64,000 nt of DNA from Gammaproteobacteria bacterium (GCA_013001575.1 JABDMI010000036.1:1577-65576); one strand, 5' to 3'; shown: positions 2,408 to 19,626, counted from the stretch's first letter. Numbers and translations: made by a program. The notes: generated from the sequence alone by a model not told the origin.

Positions 2408-2946
2408 AACAAAAGGTCTTTTTTCAGATAATGAATAATGTCATGTTTTTTATTGTGCTTGTCAATCCAGGCCTTGAGCTTGGTGATGGTTTTAAAATCT
2501 TGCTCGCCTAATTGATCTTCCAGCTTTACCAAATAATCTTGTTGGAATTCTTGTTCACGAATACGCACTTGCCAGGGCGTGTTAAAAATTACCGTGAAAT
2601 GATCCTTGATGCCCAGATCCTCAAGCATTTTCCATTCACCATTATCAAACCACACATCGCCGCAGTCCTTGCACAAGTCGATCTGATTATCCACCTTGGA
2701 AGAAAAACGGTATTTGGTCATCAATTTGTAGCATTTCGGGCATGTGATGACCTGTTTGGTGTTTTTAACTTCTTGTAATTCGTGCTGAGTATCGGTTTTA
2801 GTGAACTCCGGCTGACGATCCAGCCAGTCGCGATAGGACAATATACTAACCAAAACCCCGCGGCAATCCACGCACGACATGGCGGGTAATCCGTACTCCA
2901 AACGCACTGGGACCATTTTTTGCTGTATGCATGCAGGACATTTCAC
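2404..2946 (-). CDS. double zinc-ribbon protein (TFIIB-type zinc ribbon family), function unknown
   Basis: 180 aa with two CPxC…CxxC modules (CPACI…CVDCRG and CPKCY…CKDCGDVWFDNGEW). Its stop overlaps the start of the downstream hydrolase by 4 nt. Confidence 0.6.
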   Translation of the reverse strand: MKCPACIQQKMVPVRLEYGLPAMSCVDCRGVLVSILSYRDWLDRQPEFTKTDTQHELQEVKNTKQVITCPKCYKLMTKYRFSSKVDNQIDLCKDCGDVWFDNGEWKMLEDLGIKDHFTVIFNTPWQVRIREQEFQQDYLVKLEDQLGEQDFKTITKLKAWIDKHNKKHDIIHYLKKDLLL

Positions 2947-3071
2947 GTTTACTCTCCCTTATTCACGGTATTTTTGAGTATCAATATTCACTCACTATAA
3001 GCAAAAATCCGTATAATTTCCAAATCATTTTTACTTGACTAAAAAAAACGGAACATTCAGGAGTTAATCAC

Positions 3072-3932
3072 ATGCGACCATGGCTATATTCCATTCTAAT
3101 TCTTACTCTGCTGTTGAGCGCTTGTGGTAAAAACGAGCCGGCAAAAACCGAGTACATTGAAAGCACCCCGAAAGTCATCACCATTCGCGAGTCATTGCAA
3201 ATGGCTATTGATGGTGAGCATCGCTCCGACAAAAATCGTGCACGTGACCAGTATCGACATCCTGCCGCAACCCTGGAATTTTTCGGGGTTAAACCCGAAT
3301 CCACGGTGGTTGAGCTATGGCCCGGCAGTGGCTGGTATTCGGAGATCTTGGGGCCGTATTTACGCGACAAAGGAACCTTTTATGCCGCAAGTTTTGGCAA
3401 TGTCAAAGAACCGGAGTATCGCGGGCGTTTACACAATAGTCTACTGAACAAATTCGCCACAGCTACCGAAGTTTATGGCAAACCCAATGTCACCACGCTT
3501 AATCCACCATTACAAACCTTGTTGGCACCATCCAATACAGCCGACTTTGTTCTGACATTCCGCAATGTACATAACTGGACCAAAGGCGAAGTGGATAAAA
3601 AAGTTTTCCAGGCTGCTTATCAGGCTCTTAAACCCGGTGGCGTATTCGGCGTGGTCGAACATCGTGCCCCCGAAGGTCGTGCGGTTGAAGATATGATGAC
3701 CTCGGGTTACATGACCGAATCCTACGTGATCGAACTGGCTGAAAGTGTTGGATTTAAACTCGCGGGTAAGTCTGAAGTGAACGCCAATCCAAAAGATACT
3801 GCCGAGCATGAAAAAGGTGTCTGGACACTGCCACCAAGTTTACGTTTGAAGGATGTGGATCGAGACAAGTATCTGGCGATTGGTGAAAGTGATCGCATGA
3901 CCTTGAAGTTTGTGAAACCGGCGAAGATGTAA
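3072..3932 (+). CDS. class I SAM-dependent methyltransferase, lipoprotein
   Basis: Signal peptide with lipobox (LLLSAC). VVELWPGSGWYSE resembles SAM motif I and LKPGGVFGVVEH resembles the post-I/II motifs. Confidence 0.75.
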   Translation: MRPWLYSILILTLLLSACGKNEPAKTEYIESTPKVITIRESLQMAIDGEHRSDKNRARDQYRHPAATLEFFGVKPESTVVELWPGSGWYSEILGPYLRDKGTFYAASFGNVKEPEYRGRLHNSLLNKFATATEVYGKPNVTTLNPPLQTLLAPSNTADFVLTFRNVHNWTKGEVDKKVFQAAYQALKPGGVFGVVEHRAPEGRAVEDMMTSGYMTESYVIELAESVGFKLAGKSEVNANPKDTAEHEKGVWTLPPSLRLKDVDRDKYLAIGESDRMTLKFVKPAKM

Positions 3933-3953
3933 TTGCTTGATGCCTTTGTTTCT

Positions 3954-4736
3954 TCATACTCTTCCATAAAAAGTCATTCTTGCTGATTTGGATAAGGCAA
4001 TTCCTGGCTCCGAGTTATAGGCTAGCACAACCAACATTCGTGTTGTTTCGCCTATAACCGGGGTTACACGATGCATTGCATTGCGACCTCGAAACAATAA
4101 TAAAGTACCTGCTTTCAAGCTTAATTTTTTCGCAGTAATTTCACCATCCAAAACCCTGGTAGCGATTGCATAATTCACATCTCCCGCATCTGCATCACGT
4201 ACATCTTTAACATACTCAAACTCACCGCCACTTTGCGGTTCCTGAATTAATAAAGTAATCGCGAATGATGAATTATCAAAATGCCATCCCAATTGCTGTC
4301 CTTTATCCGCATAATGCAAGTTGATGGATGACATCGAATCGGCATAAGGATGCAAAGCCTTTTCATTCAAAACCGAACACAGAAAGCTCTTGAATTCATT
4401 GGAGTTATACAATAAATGCAAGCACGAGTCTTGCGGGATCTGGTCGGTGGTAATACACCCTTTGGTGGAAGTTATTTGCCGGTTTCGAGGATGCCGGTCT
4501 GGAAAGTTTGAATCTGGCTCGGATAAATAAATATTATGCGTGCGTTCTGAAAAGTACGCTAAATGCTGTTGTTGCAAGCCTTCACGTCGAATTGATTCGA
4601 TCGAATTCCTGGTCAGAAAATCAGGTAACAACAATACACCATTTTTATCGAGAATATTTTTACACTCCACCTGAAAATCCGCATCACTCAGTGGGTGTTT
4701 TATAACATTTACAACATTTTGTAAGGAATTGGTCAT
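3954..4736 (-). CDS. Fe(II)/2-oxoglutarate-dependent oxygenase (hydroxylase-type HxD triad)
   Basis: 260 aa. WHFDN supplies the HxD, AMHRVTP a distal His, and LLLFRGRN a 2OG-binding Arg context. Confidence 0.6.
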   Translation of the reverse strand: MTNSLQNVVNVIKHPLSDADFQVECKNILDKNGVLLLPDFLTRNSIESIRREGLQQQHLAYFSERTHNIYLSEPDSNFPDRHPRNRQITSTKGCITTDQIPQDSCLHLLYNSNEFKSFLCSVLNEKALHPYADSMSSINLHYADKGQQLGWHFDNSSFAITLLIQEPQSGGEFEYVKDVRDADAGDVNYAIATRVLDGEITAKKLSLKAGTLLLFRGRNAMHRVTPVIGETTRMLVVLAYNSEPGIALSKSARMTFYGRV

Positions 4737-4742
4737 GTAAGT

Positions 4743-6482
4743 TTAAGGTGTAATTATCTCGTTCCCATGCACAAAGGTTTTTTGCACTTTTATATCCTTT
4801 ATTTTTTCCAAGGGAACTGCGTAAGGATCAGCGTCCACTACAATAAAATCAGCGTACTTTCCTTGCTCCAATGAACCGATCTTATTTTCCATGCCAATTT
4901 GCCAGGCTGCTTGAATGGTCATGGCTTTTAATGCCGAATCGACCTGAATTGAATGCTCAATACCAATAGTTGTGCCCTCTTTGGTTTTGCGTTCTATTGC
5001 GGTTTGCATTAAATGAAAGGGCTTACTTTCAAACATGGGTTGATCGGCGTGCATGGAATACTGCATACCAATACCCTGTGCAAATGCGATTGGTAACATT
5101 GCTCCAGCACGCCTTGTACCGAGAATATCTTGTTGCAAGGCTTGGCCGTAATAATACAAATGATTGGTGTGAAAATTCGCGCTCATGCCCATATTGTGTA
5201 ATTCATTCAGACTGTCAGTCGAGATCATTAAAGCGTGTTCAATCCGATGTCTGCCACTGGTGACATCCATAGTTTGATTCACATCTGCAAAAGCCTGTAC
5301 TACCTCGTGATTGGCCTGATCACCCTGGGCGTGTACGGCAATTTGCCAGCCTTGTTGATGATATTGTTTTATGAAGTTCTGTAACTCACCAGGGGCAAGC
5401 AATGCCTTACCCGCGTAACCTGGTGCTATATGCAAGCCGTTTCGGGTTAAGTCTGAGTCCAAATACGGTTTTTGCAAATACATGGAACCGGTATACGGTG
5501 AACCGTCGTACCAATGTTTTACCCCGAGAATATTGTAAAAATCATTCTCGGTTTTATTCTCGGGCAATAATTCAACCCGGTCGTGCCGCATATAAAGAAA
5601 ATGTCGTGGATTGGCTTCTCGTTCGGGTAAAAAACCCAACTTGCTTAGGAGTTGATTCAAAAAAACCGGTTTTTGGTCAGAGAGATGCTGATACAAACGC
5701 AAAGGCTTGGCATTGGTAATACTGATACCGGCGGAGACCACGGTGGTGTTACCGTTTTGGGCGTAGCCTTGCATGACTTTTACCGTGGAATCCAGTAACA
5801 CACTTGAAGTAAGGGCTTCCTTCAGCATGATCTCGTAAAAAGGTAATAAGGCTTCTTGCTCAACGATCAAACCGGTCAAATTCCCCTGCGAGTCTTTTTC
5901 GTAATAACTGGACTCACTGGGACTGACGGTATCACGGCTAATTTCTGCTTTCTCAAAGGCCAGCGAATTAGCCCAATAGGTATGCAAACTTTGCGACAGG
6001 ATCATTACCGGATTATCTGGCGCAAGTGCATCCAGGAACTGAATATCGGGCGTTTGCAGATCAGCAACTAAAATGGGATCCAGGCCTTTACAGATTATCC
6101 ATTCACCGGGTTCATAGTTTGCGACTTCTTGTTTTAAATATGCCCATACTGCCCGATCACTGGAATGTGTGAAACCGGACAAATCTACCATGGATTCCAG
6201 GAATGAAGACAAGGCGACATGGGAATGACTATCAATAAACCCGGGAAGAACTGTCGCACCCTCCAGGTCAACGCGATTTTTAAAATGTTCGGACGGTATC
6301 GAATCACCAATTTCTATAATCAGTCCATTTTCTACCACCATTGATTCAGCACGCGGCATTTCATCATTCAGGGTTATGATGTTTCCATTGTAGTAATAAG
6401 TGAGTGCTGCTTTGTTAAAGTCTTGTGCAAGCCAAAAATAAGCGGCGATTAGTACAAGTAATAGAAGCAGGATTTTTTTCAT
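4743..6482 (-). CDS. amidohydrolase family 3 metal-dependent hydrolase, N-terminal membrane anchor or signal
   Basis: 579 aa. Hydrophobic N-terminus (MKKILLLLLVLIAAYFW), the metal motif GFIDSHSHV, and HAQGD / HADQ later in the sequence. Confidence 0.85.
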   Translation of the reverse strand: MKKILLLLLVLIAAYFWLAQDFNKAALTYYYNGNIITLNDEMPRAESMVVENGLIIEIGDSIPSEHFKNRVDLEGATVLPGFIDSHSHVALSSFLESMVDLSGFTHSSDRAVWAYLKQEVANYEPGEWIICKGLDPILVADLQTPDIQFLDALAPDNPVMILSQSLHTYWANSLAFEKAEISRDTVSPSESSYYEKDSQGNLTGLIVEQEALLPFYEIMLKEALTSSVLLDSTVKVMQGYAQNGNTTVVSAGISITNAKPLRLYQHLSDQKPVFLNQLLSKLGFLPEREANPRHFLYMRHDRVELLPENKTENDFYNILGVKHWYDGSPYTGSMYLQKPYLDSDLTRNGLHIAPGYAGKALLAPGELQNFIKQYHQQGWQIAVHAQGDQANHEVVQAFADVNQTMDVTSGRHRIEHALMISTDSLNELHNMGMSANFHTNHLYYYGQALQQDILGTRRAGAMLPIAFAQGIGMQYSMHADQPMFESKPFHLMQTAIERKTKEGTTIGIEHSIQVDSALKAMTIQAAWQIGMENKIGSLEQGKYADFIVVDADPYAVPLEKIKDIKVQKTFVHGNEIITP

Positions 6483-6564
6483 CGTTGTAATTTCATAAAA
6501 TCTTGATAATAAATTTATACAAAAACGTCACCGAAAACGTTGGTCAACCACTTGCACTCATTGC

Positions 6565-6978
6565 TTATGCGGCTGCTTCAATCTCTATTTCCACCATCAA
6601 CTCTGGAAGCACCAGGCGATTAACACCCAACAAACTTTGGGGTGGACGAGTTCCTGCCGGGGCTATCCATTCAGCATACACATCGTAATTAGCCAGGAAT
6701 CCATCGATATCCGTTGTATAGAATCTGAGTGCGACTATATTGGCTTTTTCCATTCCAGCTTTTTCCAATATGGCATCCACATTCCGCAAGCTGTGTTGCA
6801 TTTGACCACGAATATCATTTGGCGATACGACAGCAAAACCCAGCTCGGTATCGGGAGCTGGATCGACCGAGACCTGACCTGAGCATCTGAGATGTTTGCT
6901 TGTGCCTTCCACAATTTCGCCTTGATCCATACTGAATTGAAGACCCCAATCGACCGGATTGATAGATGTGCGTTGCAT
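6565..6978 (-). CDS. RidA/YjgF-family reactive-intermediate deaminase-like protein
   Basis: 137 aa. Family-typical C-terminus (…RPPQSLLGVNRLVLPELMVEIEIEAA) and central region (QMQHSLRNVDAILEKAG). Confidence 0.8.
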   Translation of the reverse strand: MQRTSINPVDWGLQFSMDQGEIVEGTSKHLRCSGQVSVDPAPDTELGFAVVSPNDIRGQMQHSLRNVDAILEKAGMEKANIVALRFYTTDIDGFLANYDVYAEWIAPAGTRPPQSLLGVNRLVLPELMVEIEIEAAA

Positions 6979-7053: not shown

Positions 7054-8397
7054 TTATTTACGATAACTTTCTCGTAACAATTCCGGAACATTACTTGCAT
7101 CGGTCTCAAAGCCATTAGCGCCTTTTACGCCAAAGATAGCAACTGGCTGGAACATCGCTGTTTCCAAAGCCAGATCGCACAGATCCTCTGCCGATAAGGT
7201 TGGTCGCCCGGCCCGCTCTCGGAGTTCGATGTCCATGTGTTCGATGCCGTCAAAAGCGCGATACATAAGCTCAGTACACACCAGACGGTCGGAACGGAAA
7301 AAGTCAAAATCAAAGTTATATTGTTTGCCTTCATGCACCACGATCCGCTCGATCGCCTGTTTGATGCCATTTTGCGAAATAGTCGGACGCAAGATCACAA
7401 AACCATCTACGGCCAGAGTATTTTCCAATGGCCGAAACAACACCCCGTCTTTTAAGGCTTCAAAGGTGCATTTATTGCCGTTCCAGCGCTTTTGCACGCG
7501 AGCATCCAGTTCAATCTTATAGGCCTCGCGCTCTTTATCCGAACCGACGAACAAGGCGGCGTGCGGCCAATAACCGGGTAACAGAAAATTGGTTAATGCC
7601 ATGCGATGCCGGGTAACCAACACGTCACCCGGCAGCAAGATTTCACGCGCCTGGGCACGAATTCGCTCATCCACGCGATTAAGTTTAGGATTATTGATCT
7701 CGGAAAAAACCCGACCCGAGGCTTCCAGGATCTTGAACTGGGTGTGTTGTCTAATGGTCGCGCCACGTCGTTTGACCGCGTGTCGTAAAAAATGATGGGC
7801 GCGTTTTAAATACTGTTGTTTGCTTGGATCAAGATAGCCGCGATAACGCCAGATATTATCCACAAATTGTCCAACGTCCTTATCCTGAGCCAGACGCTTG
7901 ATCTTACTGCGCTCCTTGGCGGCAAAATTCATCACCATCAACATGCGCTGCGCATTATCGATATCAATAAAGGACTCGAATATGTGGGTGTATTGTTTTC
8001 GCGCCACATTCAAATGTGGAATGCCCTCGTTAAGTTTGCGCTGGATAAACGTGTGGGTAGCGAATTGTTCGAGTAAAAAACGATCCAGCCGTACCACATG
8101 ACATGCCGTGACATAGCCGATCACAAACATTTGATACTCTTCGTAGGTAGACAGATTTTTCAGGCCCACGGTGACTTCTTCGTGTGCGGTATCAATAATG
8201 TCCCACAGATTGCCACGGATGGTCAGAAACTTGGCAAACCATTCTGTTATGCGTTCGTCTTGTTCAGGCCGAAAATATTTGGCCTCAATGATCAGCTGCA
8301 ACTCCTGTGGCGCAATGGCATCTTGCTCAACTTCGGGCACCAGCTCGATCAGGGATGCCAGAGTGCGTGACAATTGCGCTATACGTGCCGGATCCAC
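7054..8397 (-). CDS. YiiX/permuted-papain (C92-like) domain protein with an uncharacterised ~270-aa helical N-terminal domain
   Basis: 447 aa. The C-terminal part has, in permuted His-then-Cys order, LLPGDVLVTR…WPHAALFVG…GKQYNFDFDFF…LVCTELMYRAF. The GTG start at 8397 directly follows the hutG TGA (8400-8398). Confidence 0.5.
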   Translation of the reverse strand: MDPARIAQLSRTLASLIELVPEVEQDAIAPQELQLIIEAKYFRPEQDERITEWFAKFLTIRGNLWDIIDTAHEEVTVGLKNLSTYEEYQMFVIGYVTACHVVRLDRFLLEQFATHTFIQRKLNEGIPHLNVARKQYTHIFESFIDIDNAQRMLMVMNFAAKERSKIKRLAQDKDVGQFVDNIWRYRGYLDPSKQQYLKRAHHFLRHAVKRRGATIRQHTQFKILEASGRVFSEINNPKLNRVDERIRAQAREILLPGDVLVTRHRMALTNFLLPGYWPHAALFVGSDKEREAYKIELDARVQKRWNGNKCTFEALKDGVLFRPLENTLAVDGFVILRPTISQNGIKQAIERIVVHEGKQYNFDFDFFRSDRLVCTELMYRAFDGIEHMDIELRERAGRPTLSAEDLCDLALETAMFQPVAIFGVKGANGFETDASNVPELLRESYRK

Positions 8398-9201
8398 TCA
8401 GTGCTCCAATGATTCCAGCAGCGCAACAAACAGAGCCTCAAGACGTGTCTTGGCTTGAATGAAGCGTTGTGACTGAACAGCTAGCTGTGCATCACCTGCG
8501 TGTTCGGACTGCATATACACTTCCTGATTCATTTCTATTTGTAGCGCTTCAACGTTTGCGTCCTGCCCATAGTGATGGGTAATGTAACCGCCTTTGTATG
8601 GTTGGTTCTTTTGCACACTGAATTTGTGCTGCATAAATTCATCCGCAATCATTTGGGTCCATTGCCCGGAACAACTGTTTCCATCGCGATCGCCCAGATA
8701 AATATCTTTATCCAGTTCGGCGTGGATTAGGGTTGCCGACTTGGCAATACTGTGCAGATCGAACAAATACACTTTCCCATGCGCTTGCTGAAGACTTGTC
8801 AGGCATTGCTGCAAGGCACGGTGGTAAGGCACATGCACTTGTTGCGTATACAGATCTATTTGTTGTTGTGACGGATAACTGGAAAAGATGGATCGCCCCT
8901 GAAAATCTGAATCGGCGACCAATTTGGTCTCGAACCGACCCGGGTACAATTCCAATGGGAGGGGTGAGCGATTCATATCAATAACATAGCGACTGACATT
9001 CGCGGCGACCACACTTACCCCTAGACCTGGTAAAAAGTCGTATAGATGATACAAAAACCAATCGGTCATGGGCAAATGCGCCACGCTTTTATTCGCAAAC
9101 AAGACCCGGATGTCATCTGGTACATAGGTGCCGGAATGCGGAATACTCGCAAGCACGGGAAGTGCGGGTCCGACTGGCTGGGTCAAGGTAAAAGCTTGCA
9201 C
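8398..9201 (-). CDS. hutG: N-formylglutamate amidohydrolase
   Basis: 267 aa. FGase-family N-terminus (LASIPHSGTYVPDD). Lies 8 nt downstream of hutF inside a hut cluster. Confidence 0.85.
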   Translation of the reverse strand: MQAFTLTQPVGPALPVLASIPHSGTYVPDDIRVLFANKSVAHLPMTDWFLYHLYDFLPGLGVSVVAANVSRYVIDMNRSPLPLELYPGRFETKLVADSDFQGRSIFSSYPSQQQIDLYTQQVHVPYHRALQQCLTSLQQAHGKVYLFDLHSIAKSATLIHAELDKDIYLGDRDGNSCSGQWTQMIADEFMQHKFSVQKNQPYKGGYITHHYGQDANVEALQIEMNQEVYMQSEHAGDAQLAVQSQRFIQAKTRLEALFVALLESLEH

Positions 9202-9209
9202 AGTTTTCC

Positions 9210-10556
9210 CTAGACCATTTTCAAAGATCGCATCGTGGTAGCGAAGTCTTTTTCTATCTCATCTGCAAACACATGTTGCTGCCCATTGACCACTTGTTTA
9301 CCACCGACATACACCTCTTTCACCAGGTCTCTTGCCCCACCAATAACGGCCGCGTCCAGCATGCGTTCAACCGGTAAACCGTTGAGCGGGGCTCGCTTTG
9401 TATCCAGCACCACGATGTCGGCAAAATGCCCGGTTTGCAGTTCGCCTACAGTAAATTGCACTGCTTTGGCTCCAGCCTTGGCAGTCATATCCCAGAGGCT
9501 GTGGCCGATACCCTGACTGGAAGCCAGACGTGAACGCTTGCGACTGATCAAGCGCTGGTTGTATTCCAGAAAACGCATTTCACCCAGCGCATCAATACGC
9601 GTGTTACTGTCGGTACCTAGCGCAAAACGGCCACCCGACTGGAAAAACTGGGCAGCGGGAAACACCCCGTCGCCCAAATACGCCTCGGTATACGGACACA
9701 AAACAACTTGCGCATGCGCGCGCGCCAGAAGATCCATCTCGCGACCATTAATGTGGGTCGCATGGATCAGATTCCATTGCGAGGTCAAGGGCACGCTATC
9801 GGCCAGTAATTGCACGGGTGAGGCGTGATGTGCGCTGAGACAATCTTGCACTTCTTTTTTTTGTTCGGCGATGTGGATGTGCACCGGGAAATTTTTACCC
9901 AAAATGGCTTCGGCGTAATGTAAGAGCTTGGGAATATTTTCAATCGGGACGGCGCGTAATGAATGCGGCGCAACCCCGGTTGCCACATGTTTATTGCAAT
10001 GTTCAAGCAATTTGCAGTATTGCGACAAGGATGCGATCACAAAACGGTAATGTTCGGGTTGTGCGGGCAAGGTAAAACCGCCGCGCATGTACAAGACCGG
10101 CAACAGGCGCAATCGGATCCCGGTGTCGCGAGCAGCCAGAATGATGGCATCCAACATCGCAAGGGTGGCAGTGCCCTCCTTATCGTGATGCAAATAATGA
10201 AATTCTGCCACCGAGGTAAAACCGGCTTGCAACATTTCCATAAAGGCCTGGCGTGCAATGCCGTATAGCTGTTTTTCATCGAGTTGATTGGCCAGGGCAT
10301 ACATGCTTTGCCGCCAACTCCAGAAATTCTCATCGCCTTTTTTGAAATTCGGGATCTCGCCATAGCCGATCAAGGCACGCTGGAAACTGTGACTGTGCGC
10401 ATTGGGAATGCCTGGCAGGGCCAGACCGGGTCGGCAAATTGCCGCATTGGCGTCCGCGATACGGCTAATACGGCCTTCATTTCCGATGGTTATGGTCTGG
10501 TTTTCACGCAATCCATCCGGAGTCAGCACATATTGAAAACTCAATGATTCGGGCAT
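9210..10556 (-). CDS. hutF: formimidoylglutamate deiminase
   Basis: 448 aa. Amidohydrolase motif PGIPNAHSHSFQRAL. Size and hut context match HutF. Confidence 0.85.
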   Translation of the reverse strand: MPESLSFQYVLTPDGLRENQTITIGNEGRISRIADANAAICRPGLALPGIPNAHSHSFQRALIGYGEIPNFKKGDENFWSWRQSMYALANQLDEKQLYGIARQAFMEMLQAGFTSVAEFHYLHHDKEGTATLAMLDAIILAARDTGIRLRLLPVLYMRGGFTLPAQPEHYRFVIASLSQYCKLLEHCNKHVATGVAPHSLRAVPIENIPKLLHYAEAILGKNFPVHIHIAEQKKEVQDCLSAHHASPVQLLADSVPLTSQWNLIHATHINGREMDLLARAHAQVVLCPYTEAYLGDGVFPAAQFFQSGGRFALGTDSNTRIDALGEMRFLEYNQRLISRKRSRLASSQGIGHSLWDMTAKAGAKAVQFTVGELQTGHFADIVVLDTKRAPLNGLPVERMLDAAVIGGARDLVKEVYVGGKQVVNGQQHVFADEIEKDFATTMRSLKMV

Positions 10557-10595
10557 ACGGCTTATCTTGTGTCCTATTCCTGTTAGCAGCTTATA

Positions 10596-11852
10596 ATGAC
10601 TTTTTTATTTACCTGGATCAACCGGCCTGTGAAGCAACATAGCGATCAACAAAGCGTGCATGATCTGGTTATCCATAATGCACGATTGTACCCGATGTCG
10701 GGGAATATTGAGTGTTCCGAGTGTGATCAGATTGCGATTGATAATGGCCTGATCAGTTCGATCAGCAAAAGTCAGTCAGAGGGTGTTTTAGCCGCCCGCA
10801 CAAGCATCGATGCACAACAGCGCGTATTATTACCGTCTTTTATCGATTGTCACACCCACATTGTGTACGCGGGAGATCGCAGCGCAGAACATAACCAGCG
10901 CTTACGCGGGGTGGATTATGCCGAGATTCACGCCAGTGGCGGTGGCATCTACGCCACAGTGAACGCGGTTCGCAAGGCCGATGAGGCTGAATTGATCCAG
11001 CAAAGCATGCAACGCATCCAAGCCTTACAAAGCGAAGGTGTGACCACGCTTGAGATCAAAAGTGGTTACGGTCTGGATACTGATAATGAATTAAAAATGC
11101 TGGGTGCGATCCGCACCCTCAAGCAAAACCTGCCGATGAATATCGTGAGCACTTTCCTAGGCGCCCACACCATTCCCAAAAACACCACCCAGAATGAATA
11201 TCTTGATTTGATCATTTCCGAGATGTTGCCGCTTATTGCCAAACACGATCTGGCCGACGCTGTAGACATGTATGTTGAGAACATCGCTTTTGATAACGCA
11301 GCCATGACACAGTTATTTAAAGCCGCCCAAGACCTCAAGCTGAATACCCGGGTGCACGCCGAACAATTGAGTCATATGCGCGCTGCCGAAACGGCGGCCT
11401 CGCTGGGCGCCTTGAGTGCGGACCATTTGGAGTATCTGGATAAAGGTGGAGCGCGGGTTATGGGCGAACACGGCTGTGTTGCCGTTTTGCTACCCAACGC
11501 CTTTTACTTTCTGCAAGAAACCCGCAAGCCACCCGTCGCCTCGTTACGCAAACATAAGGTATCGATTGCTGTAGCCAGTGACACCAATCCCGGCACTTCA
11601 CCCATTCCAAGTTTGTTAACCGCATTGCATTTTTCGGTGCATTTGTTCGGTCTTGATTGCCAGGAAGCCTTATTGGGAATCAGCTTGAATGCAGCAAAAG
11701 CCCTGGGCTTGCAACAAAAGCTTGGCAGCCTCGAAGTCGGCAAACAAGCAGACTTGGCTTTATGGGACATCCCAGGCCCGGAGTTTTTATGTTATCAACT
11801 GGGTGGTTTGGGTCCCGACCAGGTTTGGCACAAGGGAGTAATGTGCCGTTAG
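10596..11852 (+). CDS. hutI: imidazolonepropionase
   Basis: 418 aa. Contains SFIDCHTHIVYAGDR, IKSGYGL and ASDTNPG, which are typical HutI motifs. Confidence 0.9.
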   Translation: MTFLFTWINRPVKQHSDQQSVHDLVIHNARLYPMSGNIECSECDQIAIDNGLISSISKSQSEGVLAARTSIDAQQRVLLPSFIDCHTHIVYAGDRSAEHNQRLRGVDYAEIHASGGGIYATVNAVRKADEAELIQQSMQRIQALQSEGVTTLEIKSGYGLDTDNELKMLGAIRTLKQNLPMNIVSTFLGAHTIPKNTTQNEYLDLIISEMLPLIAKHDLADAVDMYVENIAFDNAAMTQLFKAAQDLKLNTRVHAEQLSHMRAAETAASLGALSADHLEYLDKGGARVMGEHGCVAVLLPNAFYFLQETRKPPVASLRKHKVSIAVASDTNPGTSPIPSLLTALHFSVHLFGLDCQEALLGISLNAAKALGLQQKLGSLEVGKQADLALWDIPGPEFLCYQLGGLGPDQVWHKGVMCR

Positions 11853-11902
11853 TACTTAGAATTTGAATTTAAATTTTTTAGACTGATCATTGAGAATACA
11901 AC

Positions 11903-13426
11903 ATGAGTAATATCATTACACTGACTGGCAATGACCTCAAGCTGGAACACATCCATGCGTGTTTTGCAGGACCAGTAAAGGCCCAACTGTGTGATAGCGC
12001 CAAAACCCGAATGCAACAAAGTGTTGATACAGTTGTTCGTGTCGTTACCGATAATAAAACCTGTTATGGCATCAACACCGGCTTTGGCGCATTCGCGAAA
12101 CAGAGTATTTCATCAAAACAAGTGCAACAACTACAGTTAAACCTGGTGCGCAGTCACGCCTGTGGTGTGGGCAATGAACTGGAACCCGGACTGGTGCGCG
12201 CAATAATGTTATTAAAAGCCAATAGTCTGGCACAAGGGGTGTCCGGGATCCGCCCACAAGTGCTTGAAACCTTATTGGCCTTGCTTAATAAGGATGTGAT
12301 TCCACGAATTCCCGCTCAAGGTTCGGTTGGCGCCTCGGGTGATCTTGCACCACTCGCACATCTTGCCTTGTGTTTGATCGGCGAAGGCAAGGCGCAACAT
12401 GCCGGGCAAACTTTGCAGGCTGAAAAAGTTTTGCATGCGGTCGGATGCAAGCCTGAAGTTTTACAAGCCAAGGAAGGACTGGCTTTACTCAACGGAACCC
12501 AGGTCAGTGCCGCCTTAGCAATGCAAGCGGCCAGACAAACCCGTGTATTACTCAAAACCTCGATCCTGGCGGGAGCCTTATCGGTGGAAGCCTTGTGCGG
12601 AAGTTATGCTCCTTTTGATGCGCGCATTCATCAGGTCAGAAACCTCGACACCCAGGCGCGCATTGCCGCGGCTTTTCGGAGTCTGTTAAGTGGCAGCAGC
12701 GTGAACCAGAGTCACACCGCCTGTGACCGGGTACAAGATCCTTACGCCCTGCGTTGCATGCCGCAAGTTTATGGTGCGGTTTTGGCCACACTCGAACACG
12801 CCGAAGAAATTCTGCAAAAGGAATGCAACTCTGTGTCGGACAATCCCTTGATCTTTGACGACGAGGTCTTATCAGGCGGTAATTTTCATGCGGCTCCATT
12901 GGGCTTTGTGAGTGATTTTCTGGCCATCGCATTGACTGAATTGGGAAATATGTCAGAACGCCGCACAGATTGTTTGTTGCGGCAGGTCAATCCGGCCTTG
13001 AATATGTTTTTAACCAGCTCGCCCGGGCTTGAGTCCGGATTAATGATGGCGCATGTCACCGCCGCCGCATTGGCGTCGGAAAACAAAACATTGGCGCACC
13101 CGGCTTCTGTGGACACCATTCCGACCTCGGCAGGCCAGGAAGACCATGTCAGTATGGCACCCTGGGCTGGACGTAAGTGTCTGAATATTTGTGAGAATGT
13201 TGTTAATATTCTGGCCATTGAGCTACTATGCGCCAGCCGTGGCTTGCACGCGCTGCTACCGCTGGAAACCACAGTCGAATTAAAACCCCTGCTTGCTACA
13301 ATTCAGTTATTGAGTGAAGACAGCTTGCAGGATCAGCCATTTGCTACTTGTATTCAGGCCCTGTCTAATGCGATTATGTCGCAAGCATTAATTACAAATA
13401 TAATTATCCAGGGTCGCAAGGCCTAA
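11903..13426 (+). CDS. hutH: histidine ammonia-lyase
   Basis: 507 aa. Has the MIO-forming GSVGASGDLAPLAHL motif. Confidence 0.95.
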   Translation: MSNIITLTGNDLKLEHIHACFAGPVKAQLCDSAKTRMQQSVDTVVRVVTDNKTCYGINTGFGAFAKQSISSKQVQQLQLNLVRSHACGVGNELEPGLVRAIMLLKANSLAQGVSGIRPQVLETLLALLNKDVIPRIPAQGSVGASGDLAPLAHLALCLIGEGKAQHAGQTLQAEKVLHAVGCKPEVLQAKEGLALLNGTQVSAALAMQAARQTRVLLKTSILAGALSVEALCGSYAPFDARIHQVRNLDTQARIAAAFRSLLSGSSVNQSHTACDRVQDPYALRCMPQVYGAVLATLEHAEEILQKECNSVSDNPLIFDDEVLSGGNFHAAPLGFVSDFLAIALTELGNMSERRTDCLLRQVNPALNMFLTSSPGLESGLMMAHVTAAALASENKTLAHPASVDTIPTSAGQEDHVSMAPWAGRKCLNICENVVNILAIELLCASRGLHALLPLETTVELKPLLATIQLLSEDSLQDQPFATCIQALSNAIMSQALITNIIIQGRKA

Positions 13427-13437
13427 AGGTTTAAATT

Positions 13438-14370
13438 ATGAGTGATCTGAGCCAAGAATTATTTCGACAGGTAATCGACCATTTTGATACCGGAATTATA
13501 GTGACCGAGAATCACACCTCGGACTGGTCGGTCTGTTATGTGAATTCGACCTTCACCGAAATGACCGGATACACCGAAGAAGATGTGCTGGGAAAAAACC
13601 CACGATTTCTACAGAATGACGACGAACAACAAGCCGCATTGTACGACTTGCATACCGCCTTGAATCAAAACACTTCTTGCACCGTGACCTTGCGAAATTA
13701 CACCAAAGACGGTGATGCTTTCTGGAATCGATTGACCATCCGACCATTATTGTCCAAAGAAGGCATCATCACGCACTATGTCGGCAGCATGAAAAACCTG
13801 GGCAAGATCACCAGCGATGAACTCGAAAGAGCTCGGCGTAAAGCCAACCATGTAACGGCCTTCCGTGACCAGCAAACCGGTTTATTCAATCAGGAATATT
13901 TTGAATCGCATTTTGTGCGTGACTGGCACTTGTGGTTGCGCGAGAAAAAAGACATCACATTGGTTATGTTCACCCCGGACCATTTCGAGATCTACAAAAA
14001 AACCTTTGGATTAGCCGCGGCTGAGTCAGCCTTGCGTAAGATCGCCTATCTGATCAATACCAATTTGCAACGTGCCAGTGATACCGTTGCCCGCTATAAA
14101 GAAAACAGTATTGTTGCTTTGATGCAAGGTGACTTCACCGAAGATAAACGCTATTTTCTAGACCAGATTGCCGACAAGATCCATGATCTGTGTGTCCATC
14201 ACCCGCATTCACCGGATGAACAGTATCTCACTGTGAGTTTGACCGCCGTTTCGGCCCAGCCGGACCATGATAAAAACCCGGGTGAGCTACTTAATAAACT
14301 GGTCACGCTGCACAACTCTCAAGACGTAAACAGCAACGCCCGTCAATTTTATGAGTACACCCCGCAGTAA
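13438..14370 (+). CDS. LOV-type PAS domain (Cys-less) fused to a degenerate GGDEF domain with a retained I-site
   Basis: 310 aa. GKNPRFLQ…NYTKDGDAFWN is the LOV signature with Cys replaced by Pro (CCA, 13600-13602). The C-terminal part aligns to GGDEF, with RASD-TVAR-Y-KENSI in place of RxxD-x4-Y-GGDEF. Confidence 0.8.
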   Translation: MSDLSQELFRQVIDHFDTGIIVTENHTSDWSVCYVNSTFTEMTGYTEEDVLGKNPRFLQNDDEQQAALYDLHTALNQNTSCTVTLRNYTKDGDAFWNRLTIRPLLSKEGIITHYVGSMKNLGKITSDELERARRKANHVTAFRDQQTGLFNQEYFESHFVRDWHLWLREKKDITLVMFTPDHFEIYKKTFGLAAAESALRKIAYLINTNLQRASDTVARYKENSIVALMQGDFTEDKRYFLDQIADKIHDLCVHHPHSPDEQYLTVSLTAVSAQPDHDKNPGELLNKLVTLHNSQDVNSNARQFYEYTPQ

Positions 14371-14403
14371 TTAATTTGCGGTTTATCAAATAAAGGGAAA
14401 ATT

Positions 14404-14859
14404 GTGTCAACGGCCATTCATAAAAAAGTCGCCGCGTGTAAAGCCGGAACCAATCCACAACTCATCACCCGTATGCCATCGGGCTGGTTAATTCTGGGCG
14501 ATGTGCAGTTCTTACACGGCTATTGTTTGCTAATGCCAGACCCGGTCGTACCGGATCTGAATGCGATGTCGTTGAAAAAGCGTAACGAATTTTTGCAAGA
14601 CATGAGTCTGGTCGGAGATGCCTTACTTGATGTCACCGCTGCAATACGAATCAATTACGAGATCCTTGGTAATCTGGAACCAGCATTGCATGGCCATATT
14701 TTCCCGCGATTCTCGGATGAAGACCCCGAACTAAAAACCAAACCCGTATGGTTCTATGATTGGGAAAATGCCAGAGCATTTGATGCAGATACGGACCAGG
14801 AAATAATGTTGAAAATTCGTAACCACCTGGAACAACATGGCCTTACTGAAAGTCAATGA
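14404..14859 (+). CDS. HIT-like (histidine-triad-fold) protein, putative
   Basis: 151 aa with a GTG start. ALHGHIFPR aligns to the HxHxHxx triad with the first His replaced by Ala. The assignment is by eye only. Confidence 0.45.
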   Translation: MSTAIHKKVAACKAGTNPQLITRMPSGWLILGDVQFLHGYCLLMPDPVVPDLNAMSLKKRNEFLQDMSLVGDALLDVTAAIRINYEILGNLEPALHGHIFPRFSDEDPELKTKPVWFYDWENARAFDADTDQEIMLKIRNHLEQHGLTESQ

Positions 14860-15464
14860 ATACTGTTTATCCGCCCAAATATCACCTGGAAACGGATGAG
14901 GAAAAGATTTTTCATGTGATCGAGCGCTTCCCCTTGGCGATCCTGATCTCCAGCAGCAACGATGAAATACAAACCACCCAAATTCCTCTTGTTCTTGACC
15001 GGGGATCGAAAACCCTTCTGGGGCACATAGATAAAAACAACCCACATGGCAAACTTCTCGATAACAGAAAAGTCTCGCTTGTGTTCAATGGGCCAAATGC
15101 CTACATTTCACCAACCACATATGCTGTAAGTGAATTACCCACCTGGAATTATATCAGTGTGCACGCAAGCGGAACTGTGACAACCATTCACGACTTCGAT
15201 AAAGTCAGTGATTCAATAATTGCCATGGCAGAATTTCTTGAAACAGAAGATAGTAATTATCAACTTGCTAAAGGTGACGAAAAGTTGAAAGCCCTGGTTC
15301 CCTATGTGACCGGATTTGAAATTGAAATTGATGAGATGATCGGCCGTTATAAATTGTCGCAGGATAAGTCCGCACAGGATACCGGTCTCGCCAGACAACA
15401 TCTGATTAACGCCAACAAACACGACCACACGGCCTTGCTTGATTATCTACTGGATACCCAATGA
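14856..15464 (+). CDS. paiB: FMN-binding negative transcriptional regulator PaiB family
   Basis: 202 aa. Contains LLGHIDKNNPH…FNGPNAYISP…PTWNYISVHASG, typical of PaiB. There is a 4-nt ATGA overlap with the upstream gene. Confidence 0.8.
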   Translation: MNTVYPPKYHLETDEEKIFHVIERFPLAILISSSNDEIQTTQIPLVLDRGSKTLLGHIDKNNPHGKLLDNRKVSLVFNGPNAYISPTTYAVSELPTWNYISVHASGTVTTIHDFDKVSDSIIAMAEFLETEDSNYQLAKGDEKLKALVPYVTGFEIEIDEMIGRYKLSQDKSAQDTGLARQHLINANKHDHTALLDYLLDTQ

Positions 15465-15943
15465 CAATAGACATACTGGTTGCCGACTACTCCAATCCAC
15501 AACACGCCAAAGATGTGGGGTTTTTATTGAATGAATACGCCAAGGACCCTATGGGTGCGGGCAAACCACTGGATACTGGCATCCAGGAAAAAGTCGCCAG
15601 CGAACTCGCCAAACAAGCCGGCGCATTCAGCGTGCTCGCTTATGTCGATGGCAAACCCGCTGCCTTAACCAACTGTTTGCAAAGTTTCTCAACATTCAAA
15701 TGCAAACCCCTGATCAACATTCATGACCTGGCTGTGGTCAAAGAATTTCGCGGCATGGGACTCAGTACCCGTATGTTGGAGAAAGTTGAAGAAGTTGCCA
15801 GAGAGCGTGATTGCTGCAAACTGACCCTGGAAGTGCTGGGTAAAAACATTCCTGCCAAGAAGTCATATCAAAAATTTGGTTTTAAGGCTTATGAGCTGGA
15901 TCCGATAGCGGGTGTGGCTGAATTTTTGGAAAAAGAGCTTTAA
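15461..15943 (+). CDS. GNAT-family N-acetyltransferase
   Basis: 160 aa. Acetyl-CoA motif A (VKEFRGMGLSTRML) and C-terminal KSYQKFGF. There is a 4-nt overlap with paiB. Confidence 0.85.
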   Translation: MTIDILVADYSNPQHAKDVGFLLNEYAKDPMGAGKPLDTGIQEKVASELAKQAGAFSVLAYVDGKPAALTNCLQSFSTFKCKPLINIHDLAVVKEFRGMGLSTRMLEKVEEVARERDCCKLTLEVLGKNIPAKKSYQKFGFKAYELDPIAGVAEFLEKEL

Positions 15944-16039
15944 CAGCTTAAATAAAGCTATAAATATGTGTTTTTAGAGTCAAATTGTGGCATAGTGCGC
16001 ACCCTCAAACTGTCGCAATCGCTCAATTAAGGCTTAATC

Positions 16040-17629
16040 GTGTTAACAACTTCCAATATCACCATGCAATTTGGTGAAAAACCCCTGTTTGAAAATGTTT
16101 CGGTCAAATTTGGCACCGGCAATCGCTATGGACTGATCGGCGCGAATGGTTGTGGGAAATCGACCTTCATGAAAATTCTCGGTGGTGAGTTGGAACCCAC
16201 TTCCGGCAATGTATCCAAAGACCCACATGAACGAATAGCCACTTTGAAACAGGACCAGTTTGCCTATGAAGAATACAGTGTTCTGGATACGGTCATTATG
16301 GGGCACAACGAACTCTGGGCAGTGAAATCAGAACGCGATGCGATCTATGACAACCCGAACATGACCGAAGCAGATGGCATGCGAGCGGCCGATCTGGAAA
16401 CCCAGTTTGCAGAAATGGACGGCTACACAGCTGAAGCCCGCGCAGGCGAATTACTACTAGCCGTAGGCATACCTGAAGAGCAACATTTTGGCCCGATGAG
16501 TGAAGTGGCCCCAGGCTGGAAATTGCGTGTACTGTTGACTCAAGTTCTATTTTCCGAGCCTGACATCATGTTGCTGGATGAACCGACCAACAACCTGGAT
16601 ATCAATGCCATTCGTTGGCTAGAAGGTGTTTTGAAAGAGCGTAGTTGCACCATGGTCATTATTTCGCATGACCGTCACTTTCTAAACAGTGTGTGCACTC
16701 ACATGGCTGATCTGGATTATGGCTCGATCAGCTTATATCCTGGGAACTATGATGAGTACATGACTGCCTCCACTCAGGCGCGTGAGCAAATGCAGGCCGA
16801 TAACGCGAAAAAGAAAGCCCAAATTGCCGAGCTCAAGGCCTTTGTGAGTCGCTTTTCGGCCAATGCCTCCAAATCCAAACAAGCCACCTCACGCGCCAAA
16901 CAGATCGACAAAATCAAACTGGCCGATATCAAACCGTCGAGCCGAAGAAATCCCTATATCCGCTTTGAGCAAGAGAAAAAACTCTATCGCATGGCTTTGG
17001 AAGTTGAAGGCCTGGCAAAAAGTTTTGAAGAAAACCTGTTTAAGAATCTCGACTTATCCATCGAAGTCGGAGAACGGGTTGCGATCATCGGAGAGAATGG
17101 CATTGGTAAAACCACCCTGATGCGCTGTTTGTTTGGTGACCTGGATGCCAATTCGGGCGAGATCAAATGGTCCGAGAATGCCAATATCGGTTACTACGCC
17201 CAGGACCATGCGCATGAATTTGAACACAACAAAATTGTATTTGACTGGATGGACGCATTTGGAAAACCTGAAGACGATGAACAAAGTATCCGATCGGTAT
17301 TGGGTAGACTGCTGTTTTCACAAGACGATATCAGTAAAAATGTGAAAGTACTTTCGGGTGGTGAACAAGGCCGCATGATCTTTGGTAAATTAATGCTGCA
17401 AACCCCTAATATCCTGTTACTCGATGAACCAACCAATCACCTCGACATGGAATCGATCGAGTCCTTGAACCTGGCCTTGGAAAATTACGAGGGCACCCTG
17501 CTCTTCATCAGCCATGACCGAGAATTTGTCTCCTCGATCGCGACGCGAATAATAGAACTGACCCCAACCGGCATCAATGATTATCACGGAACTTACGAAG
17601 AGTATTTAGCCAAACAAGGGCTAAATTAA
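16040..17629 (+). CDS. ybiT: ABC-F family ATPase (YbiT-like)
   Basis: 529 aa, two ABC cassettes (GANGCGKST and GENGIGKTT; LSGGE ×2) and no TM domain. The N-terminus closely matches E. coli YbiT as I recall it. Confidence 0.9.
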
Positions 17630-19626
17630 AGATCAACTATTTCAAACACGTCTTCATCGACTAAATTGGGGACCGTTACTTTTAACTCAGGTGTCCGTGC
17701 CATTTCTCTATTCAGGGCAAACATCGCTTCTTTATTTCTTGCCCAGCTACGCCTGGCAATGCCATTATTGACATCGTAAAACAACATAGCCTTGAGGCGT
17801 TTAGCGGCTTTTTTGCTGCCATCCAGTAACATCCCGAAGCCGCCATTTATCACTTCACCCCAGCCTACACCGCCGCCGTTGTGGATAGACACCCAGGTCG
17901 CACCCCGGAAACTGTCACCGATGGCATTATGGATGGCCATATCGGCGGTGAATTGACTGCCATCATAAATATTGGAGGTCTCGCGAAACGGTGAATCGGT
18001 TCCACTCACATCGTGATGATCGCGTCCGAGAACCACTGGACCGATCTCGCCAGCTTTAACGGCGTCATTAAAGGCTTTGGCGATCTTGATACGCCCTTCT
18101 GCATCTGCATAAAGTATTCTCGCCTGTGACCCAACAACCAGTTTGTTCTTTTTCGCATCCGCGATCCAGCTAATATTGTCTTGCATTTGTAACTGGATCT
18201 CGGGTGGCGCGTCTTGCATGATCTCTTTAAGTACCTGCATGGCGATGTCATCCGTCTTATCCAGATCTTGCGGTTTTCCCGACGTACACACCCAGCGGAA
18301 AGGGCCAAAACCGTAATCAAAACACATCGGACCCAGAATATCTTGCACATAAGACGAGTATTTAAAATCGATATTATTGTCGGCCATCACATCCCCACCG
18401 GCGCGTGAGGCCTCAAGTAAAAAGGCATTGCCGTAATCGAAAAAGTAGGTGCCTTTCGCCGCATGCCTGTTGATGGCATTTGCCTGACGGCGTAAGGATT
18501 CCTGGACTTTTTGTTTAAACTCTTCCGGCTGTTCACGGATCAATCGATTCGATTCCGCATAAGTCACATCCACCGGATAATATCCCCCCGACCAGGGGTT
18601 GTGCAATGAAGTTTGATCTGAACCAACGTGCACGAATATATTTTCACGATCAAAGTCTTCCCAGACGTCCACGATGTTTCCGATGTAGGCAATGGAAACC
18701 ACTTCTTTATTGTCTTGGGCCTGTTTTACACGAAGGATCAAGTCATCCATATCATCAATGAGCACATCGACCCAGCCCTGGGCATGACGTTTTTTTGCAG
18801 CGTCCGGGTTAATTTCAGCACATACCGTAATACATCCGGCAATATTCCCGGCTTTGGGTTGTGCCCCGCTCATGCCACCGAGACCCGAGGTTAAGAATAT
18901 TTTTCCGGCAGAGGTATCGTCTTTATTTAATATTTTACGAAACGCATTCATCACGGTAATGGTCGTGCCGTGCACAATGCCTTGTGGCCCGATGTACATG
19001 TAGGAACCGGCGGTCATTTGCCCGTATTGGGTAACCCCCAAAGCATTATATTTTTCCCAATCGTCCGGACTGGAATAGTTCGGTATCATCATGCCATTGG
19101 TCACGACCACACGCGGAGCATTCTTTGAGGACGGAAACAGTCCCATCGGATGACCGGAATACATGTGCAAAGTCTGTTTGCTGGTCATGCTGGCCAGATA
19201 CTGCATGCTGAGCAGATACTGTGCCCAGTTCTGGAATACCGCACCGTTTCCGCCATAAGTAATCAATTCTTCCGGGTGTTGGGCCACGGCCGGATCCAGA
19301 TTGTTCTGGATCATTAACATGATCGCAGCAGCCTGTTGGCATTTGGCGGGATATTGATCTATTGGACGTGCATACATCTTGTATTGCGGTTTAAACCGGT
19401 ACATGTATATGCGACCGTAGTTTTTCAATTCATGCGTAAACTCGAGAGCAAGTTCTTGATGCCAGTCTTGTGGGAAATAACGCAGGGCATTACGAATGGC
19501 GAGCTTTTTTTCTTCGAGAGTAAGAATGTCTTTGCGCTTGGGTGCGTGGTTCACGCTTGATGTATATTCTCTTTTCGGAGGAAGTTCGGTAGGGATGCCC
19601 TGGAGTATTTGGGATTGAAAAGTCAT
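17626..19626 (-). CDS. hutU: urocanate hydratase, long (666-aa) form
   Basis: Urocanase throughout (ALRYFP…, [23 protein letters not shown]). It is about 100 aa longer than the ~557-aa forms I know from E. coli-like or Pseudomonas genomes. Its stop overlaps the ybiT stop (TTAA). Confidence 0.95.

Follow-up and report, generated by a model that had tools for sequence, protein, structure and literature searches.

What is a gene of no recognized role in histidine catabolism doing directly behind hutG, with its start codon abutting the hutG stop? The locus lies in a 64-kb window (the whole stretch of gammaproteobacterial DNA that was analysed), and the gene, referred to here as the C92 gene after the Peptidase_C92 family of its catalytic domain, has been proposed in a preliminary description to encode an amidase or peptidase that feeds histidine- or imidazole-containing conjugates into the hut pathway or, alternatively, to be an unrelated passenger. 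We have addressed this question by defining the gene and its product, by following its linkage to hut genes across related genomes, and by weighing the candidate activities against the family as a whole.

The gene and its junction with hutG

The 447-aa open reading frame announced in the preliminary description, opening at a GTG that abuts the hutG TGA, was verified in the sequence in both its coordinates (7054–8397, minus strand) and its zero gap (Table 1), and all four of the motifs ascribed to it are present in the translation (PGDVLVTR, YWPHAALFVG, GKQYNFDFDFF and LVCTELMYRAF). On the minus strand the junction reads ...TTGGAGCACTGAGTGGATCC..., where the hutG TGA is followed by the C92 GTG with a gap of 0 nt (TGAGTG), so that the two genes share one reading frame, and a GGAG located 6 nt 5' of the GTG falls within the 3' end of hutG. 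A protein identical to the C92 product is on record from a Gammaproteobacteria MAG (P0001), and 1,592 homologues were found at E <= 0.001, most of them of about 445 aa and aligned over the full length; the open reading frame is therefore a real gene and not a chance one. Its start does not lie further upstream, since the hutG stop bounds it, nor far downstream, since P44, W53 and R61 are invariant (invariance among the homologues thus reaching residues 44–65) and the starts of the homologues differ by only a few positions.

Table 1. Features of the hutF-hutG-C92 region, in window coordinates
Feature	Position	Strand	Basis
hutF (formimidoylglutamate deiminase), first in the same-strand run	9210–10556	-	TIGR02022, 449 bits
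hutG (N-formylglutamate amidohydrolase), upstream gene	8398–9201	-	Pfam FGase, 203 bits
hutG/C92 junction	8395–8407	-	GGAG 8407–8404, TGA 8400–8398, GTG 8397–8395; sequence
C92 gene (two-domain YiiX/C92-type cysteine hydrolase)	7054–8397	-	complete, 447 aa + stop; ORF list, translation, homologues
N-terminal all-helical domain, aa 1–~245, basic, outside known families	7663–8397	-	AF2 model; profile, PDB and Foldseek searches
Permuted NlpC/P60 domain (Peptidase_C92, YaeF/YiiX-like), aa 255–447	7057–7635	-	PF05708, domain model, Foldseek
His279 codon CAC, proposed catalytic histidine (YiiX His49)	7561–7563	-	invariant 54/54; motif match only
Glu313 codon GAA, third triad residue (YiiX Glu64)	7459–7461	-	invariant; aligned with Glu64; role per PMC3142127
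Tyr360 codon TAT, NlpC/P60 signature tyrosine (YiiX Tyr115)	7318–7320	-	invariant; hmmsearch, hhalign, MAFFT
Cys374 codon TGT, catalytic nucleophile (YiiX Cys128)	7276–7278	-	invariant; aligned with Cys128

The identity of the neighbors is clear in the case of hutF, which passes the 413-bit cutoff of its NCBIfam equivalog model; hutG is matched by the Pfam model, and its best NCBIfam match (TIGR02017, 175 bits) is under that model's cutoff. The window encodes all five hut enzymes (HutH, HutU, HutI, HutF and HutG), with no step missing. The C92 gene itself displays no GC anomaly, no second copy occurs within the window, and a plasmid search revealed no plasmid-borne relatives.

Given the 0-nt gap, the Shine-Dalgarno sequence within the end of hutG and the tight junctions in six related contigs (see below), it is plausible that hutF, hutG and the C92 gene form a single transcription unit. 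Transcriptional read-through appears likely, since the junction is of 0 nt and no terminator is predicted.

A permuted NlpC/P60 domain joined to a helical domain without known matches

The C-terminal half of the protein matches Pfam family PF05708 (Peptidase_C92) over aa 256–385 (41.3 bits vs. a cutoff of 27, E = 2.1e-10), as do all of the 54 aligned homologues (best E = 1.9e-18). Four residues, H279, E313, Y360 and C374, show no variation over the alignment (54/54) and follow one another in the permuted order His...Glu...Tyr...Cys. The YaeF/YiiX family was defined by a Cys/His/polar triad and a signature tyrosine, which in YiiX are His49, Glu64, Tyr115 and Cys128 (Xu et al. 2011, PMC3142127). 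In comparisons with the E. coli K-12 YiiX sequence (taken from the annotated genome), Y360 falls on Tyr115 and C374 on Cys128 by hmmsearch, hhalign and MAFFT alike, and MAFFT also pairs E313 with Glu64 and G257-D258 with Gly24-Asp25. The assignment of His279 is by motif and invariance (WPHAALF resembles YSHTGML of YiiX, and the residue opens a beta strand in the model), while MAFFT sets YiiX His49 against Ala292, a misplacement due to the insertion of ~19 aa that follows His279.

Structural comparison was performed with a separate model of residues 241–447 (pLDDT 91.6, pTM 0.90), as in a full-length Foldseek query the helical half drew generic bundle and BAR matches (best E = 0.04) that masked the catalytic domain. 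The only specific PDB matches of this model are YiiX (2if6; E = 2.9e-4, probability 1.0, TM 0.50/0.56) and a B. cereus homologue (3kw0; E = 1.3e-2, TM 0.52/0.54, rmsd 4.3), the next match being at E = 0.33; in BFVD, the full-length model matched poxvirus and giant-virus homologues of G6R/OPG091 (E = 4e-7 to 1e-3). Direct sequence likeness to YiiX is weak (E = 0.75 for the 54-sequence profile vs. 2if6; hhalign probability of 85% against the single YiiX sequence, over 71 columns of the Tyr-Cys half only), and PDB sequence searches with phmmer and with the 54-sequence profile gave marginal matches only. Profile and predicted structure nonetheless support the view of the C-terminal half as a divergent YaeF/YiiX (MEROPS C92) circularly permuted papain-like domain of the NlpC/P60 type. 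The same reading had been offered in the preliminary description, and it is upheld by the Pfam score above cutoff, by the invariant residues in permuted order and by the Foldseek matches to 2if6, 3kw0 and G6R.

With YiiX and the B. cereus protein (BcPPNE, 3kw0) the C92 protein shares a permuted papain-like core, the same order of His, Glu, Tyr and Cys, a common GD...H...E...GKxY...C pattern and a similar Tyr-to-Cys spacing (14 residues here vs. 13 in YiiX). YiiX, however, is a single-domain protein of 202 aa with an N-terminal signal, whereas the C92 protein has 447 aa, no leader, an N-terminal domain of ~245 aa and the ~19-aa insertion between its His and Glu strands. It thus departs from the typical architecture of the C92 family (a single domain of ~200 aa, often with a signal or lipoprotein peptide), an architectural difference that leaves the catalytic criteria unaffected. 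The poxvirus G6R/OPG091 proteins display the same catalytic fold (TM up to 0.71 normalised to the target) but are viral, ~190–280 aa long, devoid of the N-terminal domain and only 12–20% identical. Canonical NlpC/P60 cell-wall peptidases (P60-like, AcmB/LytN-like) differ in that here His279 precedes Cys374 and an export signal is lacking.

The N-terminal region had been described as an unrecognised domain of 270 aa. The absence of known matches holds, but the length does not: the region comprises ~245–255 aa, since the C92 match begins at residue 256 and the helices end near residue 253. The AF2 model places helices over residues 3–253, with pLDDT > 85 for aa 1–190 and ~50–60 for aa 190–240, where a long low-confidence helix spans 193–233. 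Neither a Pfam match at E < 0.08 nor a recurrent Pfam match over 54 members was obtained for this domain, and searches of NCBIfam, of the PDB by sequence profile and of structures by Foldseek returned no match, no match and no significant match, respectively; the weak likenesses that Foldseek lists for the helical half, to long helical bundles, BAR domains and PspA-type proteins, all fall short of significance (E >= 0.04). The domain is strongly conserved, with 13 invariant residues (P44, W53, R61, C99, D105, A113, Q119, K121, N123, H206, R210, E225 and G228) and the motifs QRKLNE and RRRG, and the two halves are of opposite charge over 54 homologues (median pI 9.3 and net +6.5 for the N-terminal domain vs. 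5.2 and -8 for the C-terminal one).

An exhaustive HMMER search with the N-terminal domain alone yielded 144 cluster representatives, the full-length ones being of ~440–470 aa and of the same architecture. Ten inspected short matches (237–338 aa) are mostly visible truncations or frameshifts just before or in the catalytic domain. Among seven longer or variant matches that were scanned, six contain C92 and one (P0182) is without any Pfam match; extra domains were seen only in P0109 (Sm_multidrug_ex and DUF1697). A stand-alone version was not found among these representatives, and the domain is known solely in fusion with the C92 catalytic domain. Since no segment of the protein is hydrophobic enough for a signal peptide or transmembrane helix (maximum KD19 = 1.39), its location is most likely cytoplasmic; an amphipathic or hydrophobic membrane anchor was not identified in it either.

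The two-domain protein is widespread: it accounts for over 1,500 protein clusters and, in species-representative genomes, for at least 440 matches, most of them from marine-sediment lineages. The 80 species-representative loci whose neighborhoods were analysed (see below) come from Woeseiaceae, Granulosicoccaceae, Cocleimonas, Sedimenticola, Acidobacteriota, Planctomycetota, Verrucomicrobiales and Myxococcota. Public pipelines already name relatives "YiiX/YebB-like NlpC/P60 family cysteine hydrolase", and the catalytic domain is indeed a known family; what appears to be new is the two-domain architecture and its N-terminal domain, for neither of which a description was found in the searchable literature, Pfam or NCBIfam. 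This makes for a large and well-conserved subfamily carrying a second strongly conserved domain.

Linkage to hut genes and other neighborhoods

Conservation of the hutG-adjacent position proved to be partial: it is kept in close relatives and absent from the more distant ones that were checked. On each of the six contigs examined for relatives of 63–71% identity the order hutF-hutG-C92 is kept, with a hutG-C92 gap of 0–40 nt (listed gaps of 1, 1, 11, 12 and 40 nt), and the genes downstream of C92 vary among these hut-linked relatives. In a NJ tree the relatives at 63–71% identity, which are those covered by the context count, form a single subclade with the window protein and three closer homologues. 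The hutG proteins of the window and of one related locus (L001) are only ~59% identical, so the junction has been retained over substantial divergence, which is more than a very recent accident would produce and leaves room for a clade-specific functional tie. A hutG-C92 fusion by read-through of the TGA, conceivable in the window itself, was also considered as a conserved feature and rejected, given the gaps of 1, 11, 12 and 40 nt in relatives and the presence of an FGase domain in 0 of the best 120 homologues.

All relatives checked at <= 59% identity are without hut neighbors, including five contigs at 46–59% identity (P0017, P0019, P0022, P0024 and P0062), and of the 80 species-representative loci, surveyed up to 6 kb to either side as far as the contig reached, none had hut genes nearby. 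In one locus (L091) hutF is apparently split and hutI absent, and the C92 gene is intact. The invariant residues of both the catalytic and the N-terminal domain are alike in hut-linked and unlinked proteins, which argues for one function shared by the two groups.

A family-wide operon partner of another kind did not emerge: upon clustering of 822 flanking ORFs, no family occurred in more than 7 of 88 loci. The C92 gene does follow closely behind a same-strand gene (gap < 120 nt) in 33 of 68 cases, and the identity of this upstream partner depends on the lineage, being SBP_bac_3 in Granulosicoccaceae, an XRE-type HTH protein in Woeseiaceae, a cytidylyltransferase-like protein (CTP_transf_like) in Sedimenticola and Chromatiaceae, and YaeQ in Cocleimonas. 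In 3 of ~77 loci an APP1-type phosphatidate phosphatase (APP1_cat) is located directly upstream, abutting or overlapping. The site next to hutG is a further example of this dependence on lineage, old enough to be stable within its clade but not characteristic of the family. With the linkage limited to one subclade and the family free-standing elsewhere, the function of the C92 protein probably lies outside histidine catabolism. A practical lesson for annotation is that a location next to hutG, even where the start codon abuts the hutG stop, is no ground for assigning this protein to the pathway.

Proposed chemistry and competing explanations

To our knowledge, a physiological substrate has been established for none of the bacterial YaeF/YiiX-type enzymes, save for the distantly related LnsA and toxin clades. 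The permuted NlpC/P60 enzymes have hydrophobic S1 pockets that are ill-suited to peptides; YiiX crystals contained a fatty acid, lodged in a hydrophobic tunnel, and N-acyl peptides or lipoamino acids were proposed as substrates; the B. cereus homologue, for which lipoamino acids were suggested, bound a free amino acid in its S1' site. Among the lipid-acting permuted enzymes, LnsA contributes to the N-acylation of lipoproteins, phospholipase activity is known for Tox-Act1 and TseH, and the LRAT/HRASLS proteins work as acyltransferases or phospholipases, operating via a lipid acyl thioester (PMC7387801, PMC12994826). LRAT/HRASLS, S. aureus LnsA, Salmonella Tox-Act1 and V. cholerae TseH share the permuted Cys/His core and serve as a model for the chemistry proposed here, although they belong to other clades of the superfamily, are secreted, membrane-anchored or eukaryotic, and do not have the N-terminal domain.

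By analogy with the C92 family, we infer that His279, oriented by Glu313, would activate Cys374 for attack on the carbonyl of an acyl-amide or acyl-ester substrate, with Tyr360 stabilising the oxyanion; the resulting thioester acyl-enzyme would then react with water, in the case of a hydrolase, or with an acceptor, in that of an acyltransferase. Its acyl group would most likely be hydrophobic and of a fatty-acyl or lipid-like kind, in line with the permuted members characterised so far. Such a substrate is favored because these members act on fatty-acyl groups and because the loop matching the S1 wall of YiiX (beta1-beta2) is a conserved hydrophobic ALTNFLLPGYWP, which together with the YNFDFDFF found at Tyr360 constitutes a sequence-level hint. 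The basic helical domain may recruit or gate the substrate, possibly via an anionic ligand or a membrane surface, a conjecture drawn from its charge and conservation. The explanation that we prefer, and hold to be reasonably probable, is thus that of a cytoplasmic two-domain cysteine hydrolase or acyltransferase of the acyl-thioester type, acting on a substrate unrelated to histidine and captured behind hutFG in a lineage-specific manner. In one subclade the gene would have become a fixture just downstream of hutFG, where it is probably co-transcribed and translationally coupled, whereas in the family overall it would be free-standing and follow different genes from one lineage to the next.

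The principal competitor builds on the hut linkage itself and sees in the hut-linked clade an amidase co-expressed with hutFG, which splits a conjugate (such as an N-acyl-histidine, N-acyl-glutamate, His-dipeptide or carnosine-like compound) to set free histidine, glutamate or an imidazole compound and thereby feeds or clears the hut pathway. The 0-nt junction with a Shine-Dalgarno sequence inside hutG agrees with it, as does the behavior of C92, which in its clade acts like the closing gene of the hutFG unit (kept on six of six contigs while the downstream genes vary), and the amino acid in the S1' site of the B. cereus homologue, along with the lipoamino acid substrates proposed, would suit such an activity. 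Nevertheless, we consider this explanation improbable: the linkage is seen in one subclade and in none of the 80 other loci, linked and unlinked proteins have the same invariant residues, the five-enzyme pathway is complete without C92, the gene is intact at L091 despite the defects of its hut genes, and the hydrophobic S1 pockets of the family are poor for peptides. The feeding of histidine or imidazole conjugates into the pathway, as put forward in the preliminary description, therefore loses ground on account of the one-subclade linkage, the 0/80 count, the lack of a family-wide neighbor and the completeness of the pathway, as well as the use of fatty-acyl or lipid rather than peptide substrates by the characterised permuted enzymes (PMC3142127, PMC12994826). 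The alternative it had named, an unrelated passenger gene, is a better fit to the evidence than a hut role.

The preferred explanation of a histidine-unrelated acyl hydrolase or acyltransferase also admits a narrower version, that of a lipid-remodelling phospholipase A or acyltransferase at the inner face of the cytoplasmic membrane, where the basic N-terminal domain would dock on anionic phospholipid and the acidic catalytic domain would remove or transfer an acyl chain. The charge contrast between the two domains over 54 homologues, the weak fold likeness of the first to helical bundles, BAR domains and PspA-type proteins, the phosphatidate phosphatase gene upstream in three loci, and the phospholipase or acyltransferase activities of Tox-Act1, TseH and HRASLS with the same permuted core are all consistent with this version. 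It is rather unlikely in this specific form, however, as the helical fold matches do not reach significance, the APP1 linkage concerns only three loci, a membrane anchor was not identified, and CoA, nucleotides or nucleic acid would be equally suitable ligands for a basic domain. A peptidoglycan endopeptidase or amidase of the canonical NlpC/P60 kind, or a toxin secreted against other bacteria, as Tox-Act1 and TseH are, would be suggested by membership in the superfamily, some permuted members of which are T6SS effectors, but is hardly credible for a protein with a permuted catalytic order and no signal peptide or transmembrane segment; moreover, none of the 88 loci displayed an immunity-like, secretion-system or conflict-system context, PADLOC and PHROGs searches were empty, and no plasmid copies were found.

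A more far-reaching and quite doubtful extension would treat the basic helical domain of ~245 aa as a new domain family and, together with the C92 core, as the hallmark of a widespread group of cytoplasmic acyl-hydrolases or acyltransferases in marine-sediment bacteria that has so far escaped description; in the hut-linked subclade the enzyme would be expressed along with hutFG and act on a conjugate of the N-acyl amino-acid type, such as N-acyl-histidine or N-acyl-glutamate. If true, it would tie lipoamino-acid turnover to the catabolism of histidine and glutamate. The family offers a tractable entry point to these questions, since mutagenesis can target two sets of invariant residues and one host, Cocleimonas flava, is in culture.

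The junction of hutG with the C92 gene

A single TGA stop (junction at 8395-8400, minus strand) is all that separates hutG from the C92 gene, and the two genes share one reading frame, so that read-through of this codon, as computed from the window sequence, would yield a hutG-C92 fusion of 715 residues. Nevertheless, this common frame looks coincidental, judging from sequence comparison, because the corresponding gaps in relatives measure 1, 11, 12 and 40 nt and because the FGase domain (that of HutG) was found in none of the best 120 homologues of the C92 gene.

The hut genes and the genes downstream

Within 10556-19626 the hut genes follow a split arrangement: hutF and hutI are divergent, with 39 bp between their start codons, hutH comes after hutI, and hutU stands apart, beyond genes for a PAS-GGDEF protein, FMN_bind_2, GNAT and ABC-F proteins and a 151-aa ORF that lacks a Pfam match in relatives. 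The PAS-GGDEF gene adjoining the hut genes is kept in four loci of relatives (L001, L002, L089 and L091). In L091, a relative of 71% identity, gene calling divides hutF into two ORFs of 172 and 255 aa (2830-4066), and hutI is missing between hutF and the PAS-GGDEF gene, which could reflect either decay of the hut genes or an assembly error; despite this, its C92 gene is intact.

Downstream of the C92 gene, three further genes occupy the same strand (3954-6978), a trio not kept at this position in the relatives' loci compared. The last of them encodes an oxygenase whose WHFD motif (HxD) makes a hydroxylase a likelier reading than a halogenase.

Coordinates of hut-associated, downstream and APP1-type genes
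Feature	Locus	Position	Strand	Remark
hutU	window	17626-19626		apart from hutH
RidA-like protein	window	6565-6978	-	
Amidohydro_3 protein	window	4743-6482	-	579 aa; hydrophobic N-terminal leader
HalD/BesD-like 2OG-Fe(II) oxygenase	window	3954-4736	-	6 nt after Amidohydro_3 gene
APP1-type phosphatidate phosphatase	L038	4892-5989		
APP1-type phosphatidate phosphatase	L046	1046-2209		
APP1-type phosphatidate phosphatase	L054	4893-6017		

Neighbourhoods outside the hut-linked subclade

In the sister group (55-59% identity; L005, L006, L007, L010 and L012), the C92 gene occupies another recurring neighbourhood, comprising Bac_globin, ABC-F ATPase, SelU-like AAA and DUF3047 genes in L005-L007, with L010 and L012 compared for the ABC-F neighbour only. 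Three other loci carry an APP1-type phosphatidate phosphatase gene directly upstream of C92 (see table); the two genes abut at two of these loci and, by crude gene calls, overlap at the third. This phosphatase gene provides the only hint of lipid metabolism among the C92 neighbourhoods surveyed. One homologue, P0109 (713 aa), is called as the two-domain protein fused to Sm_multidrug_ex and the start of DUF1697, and may represent merged gene calls.
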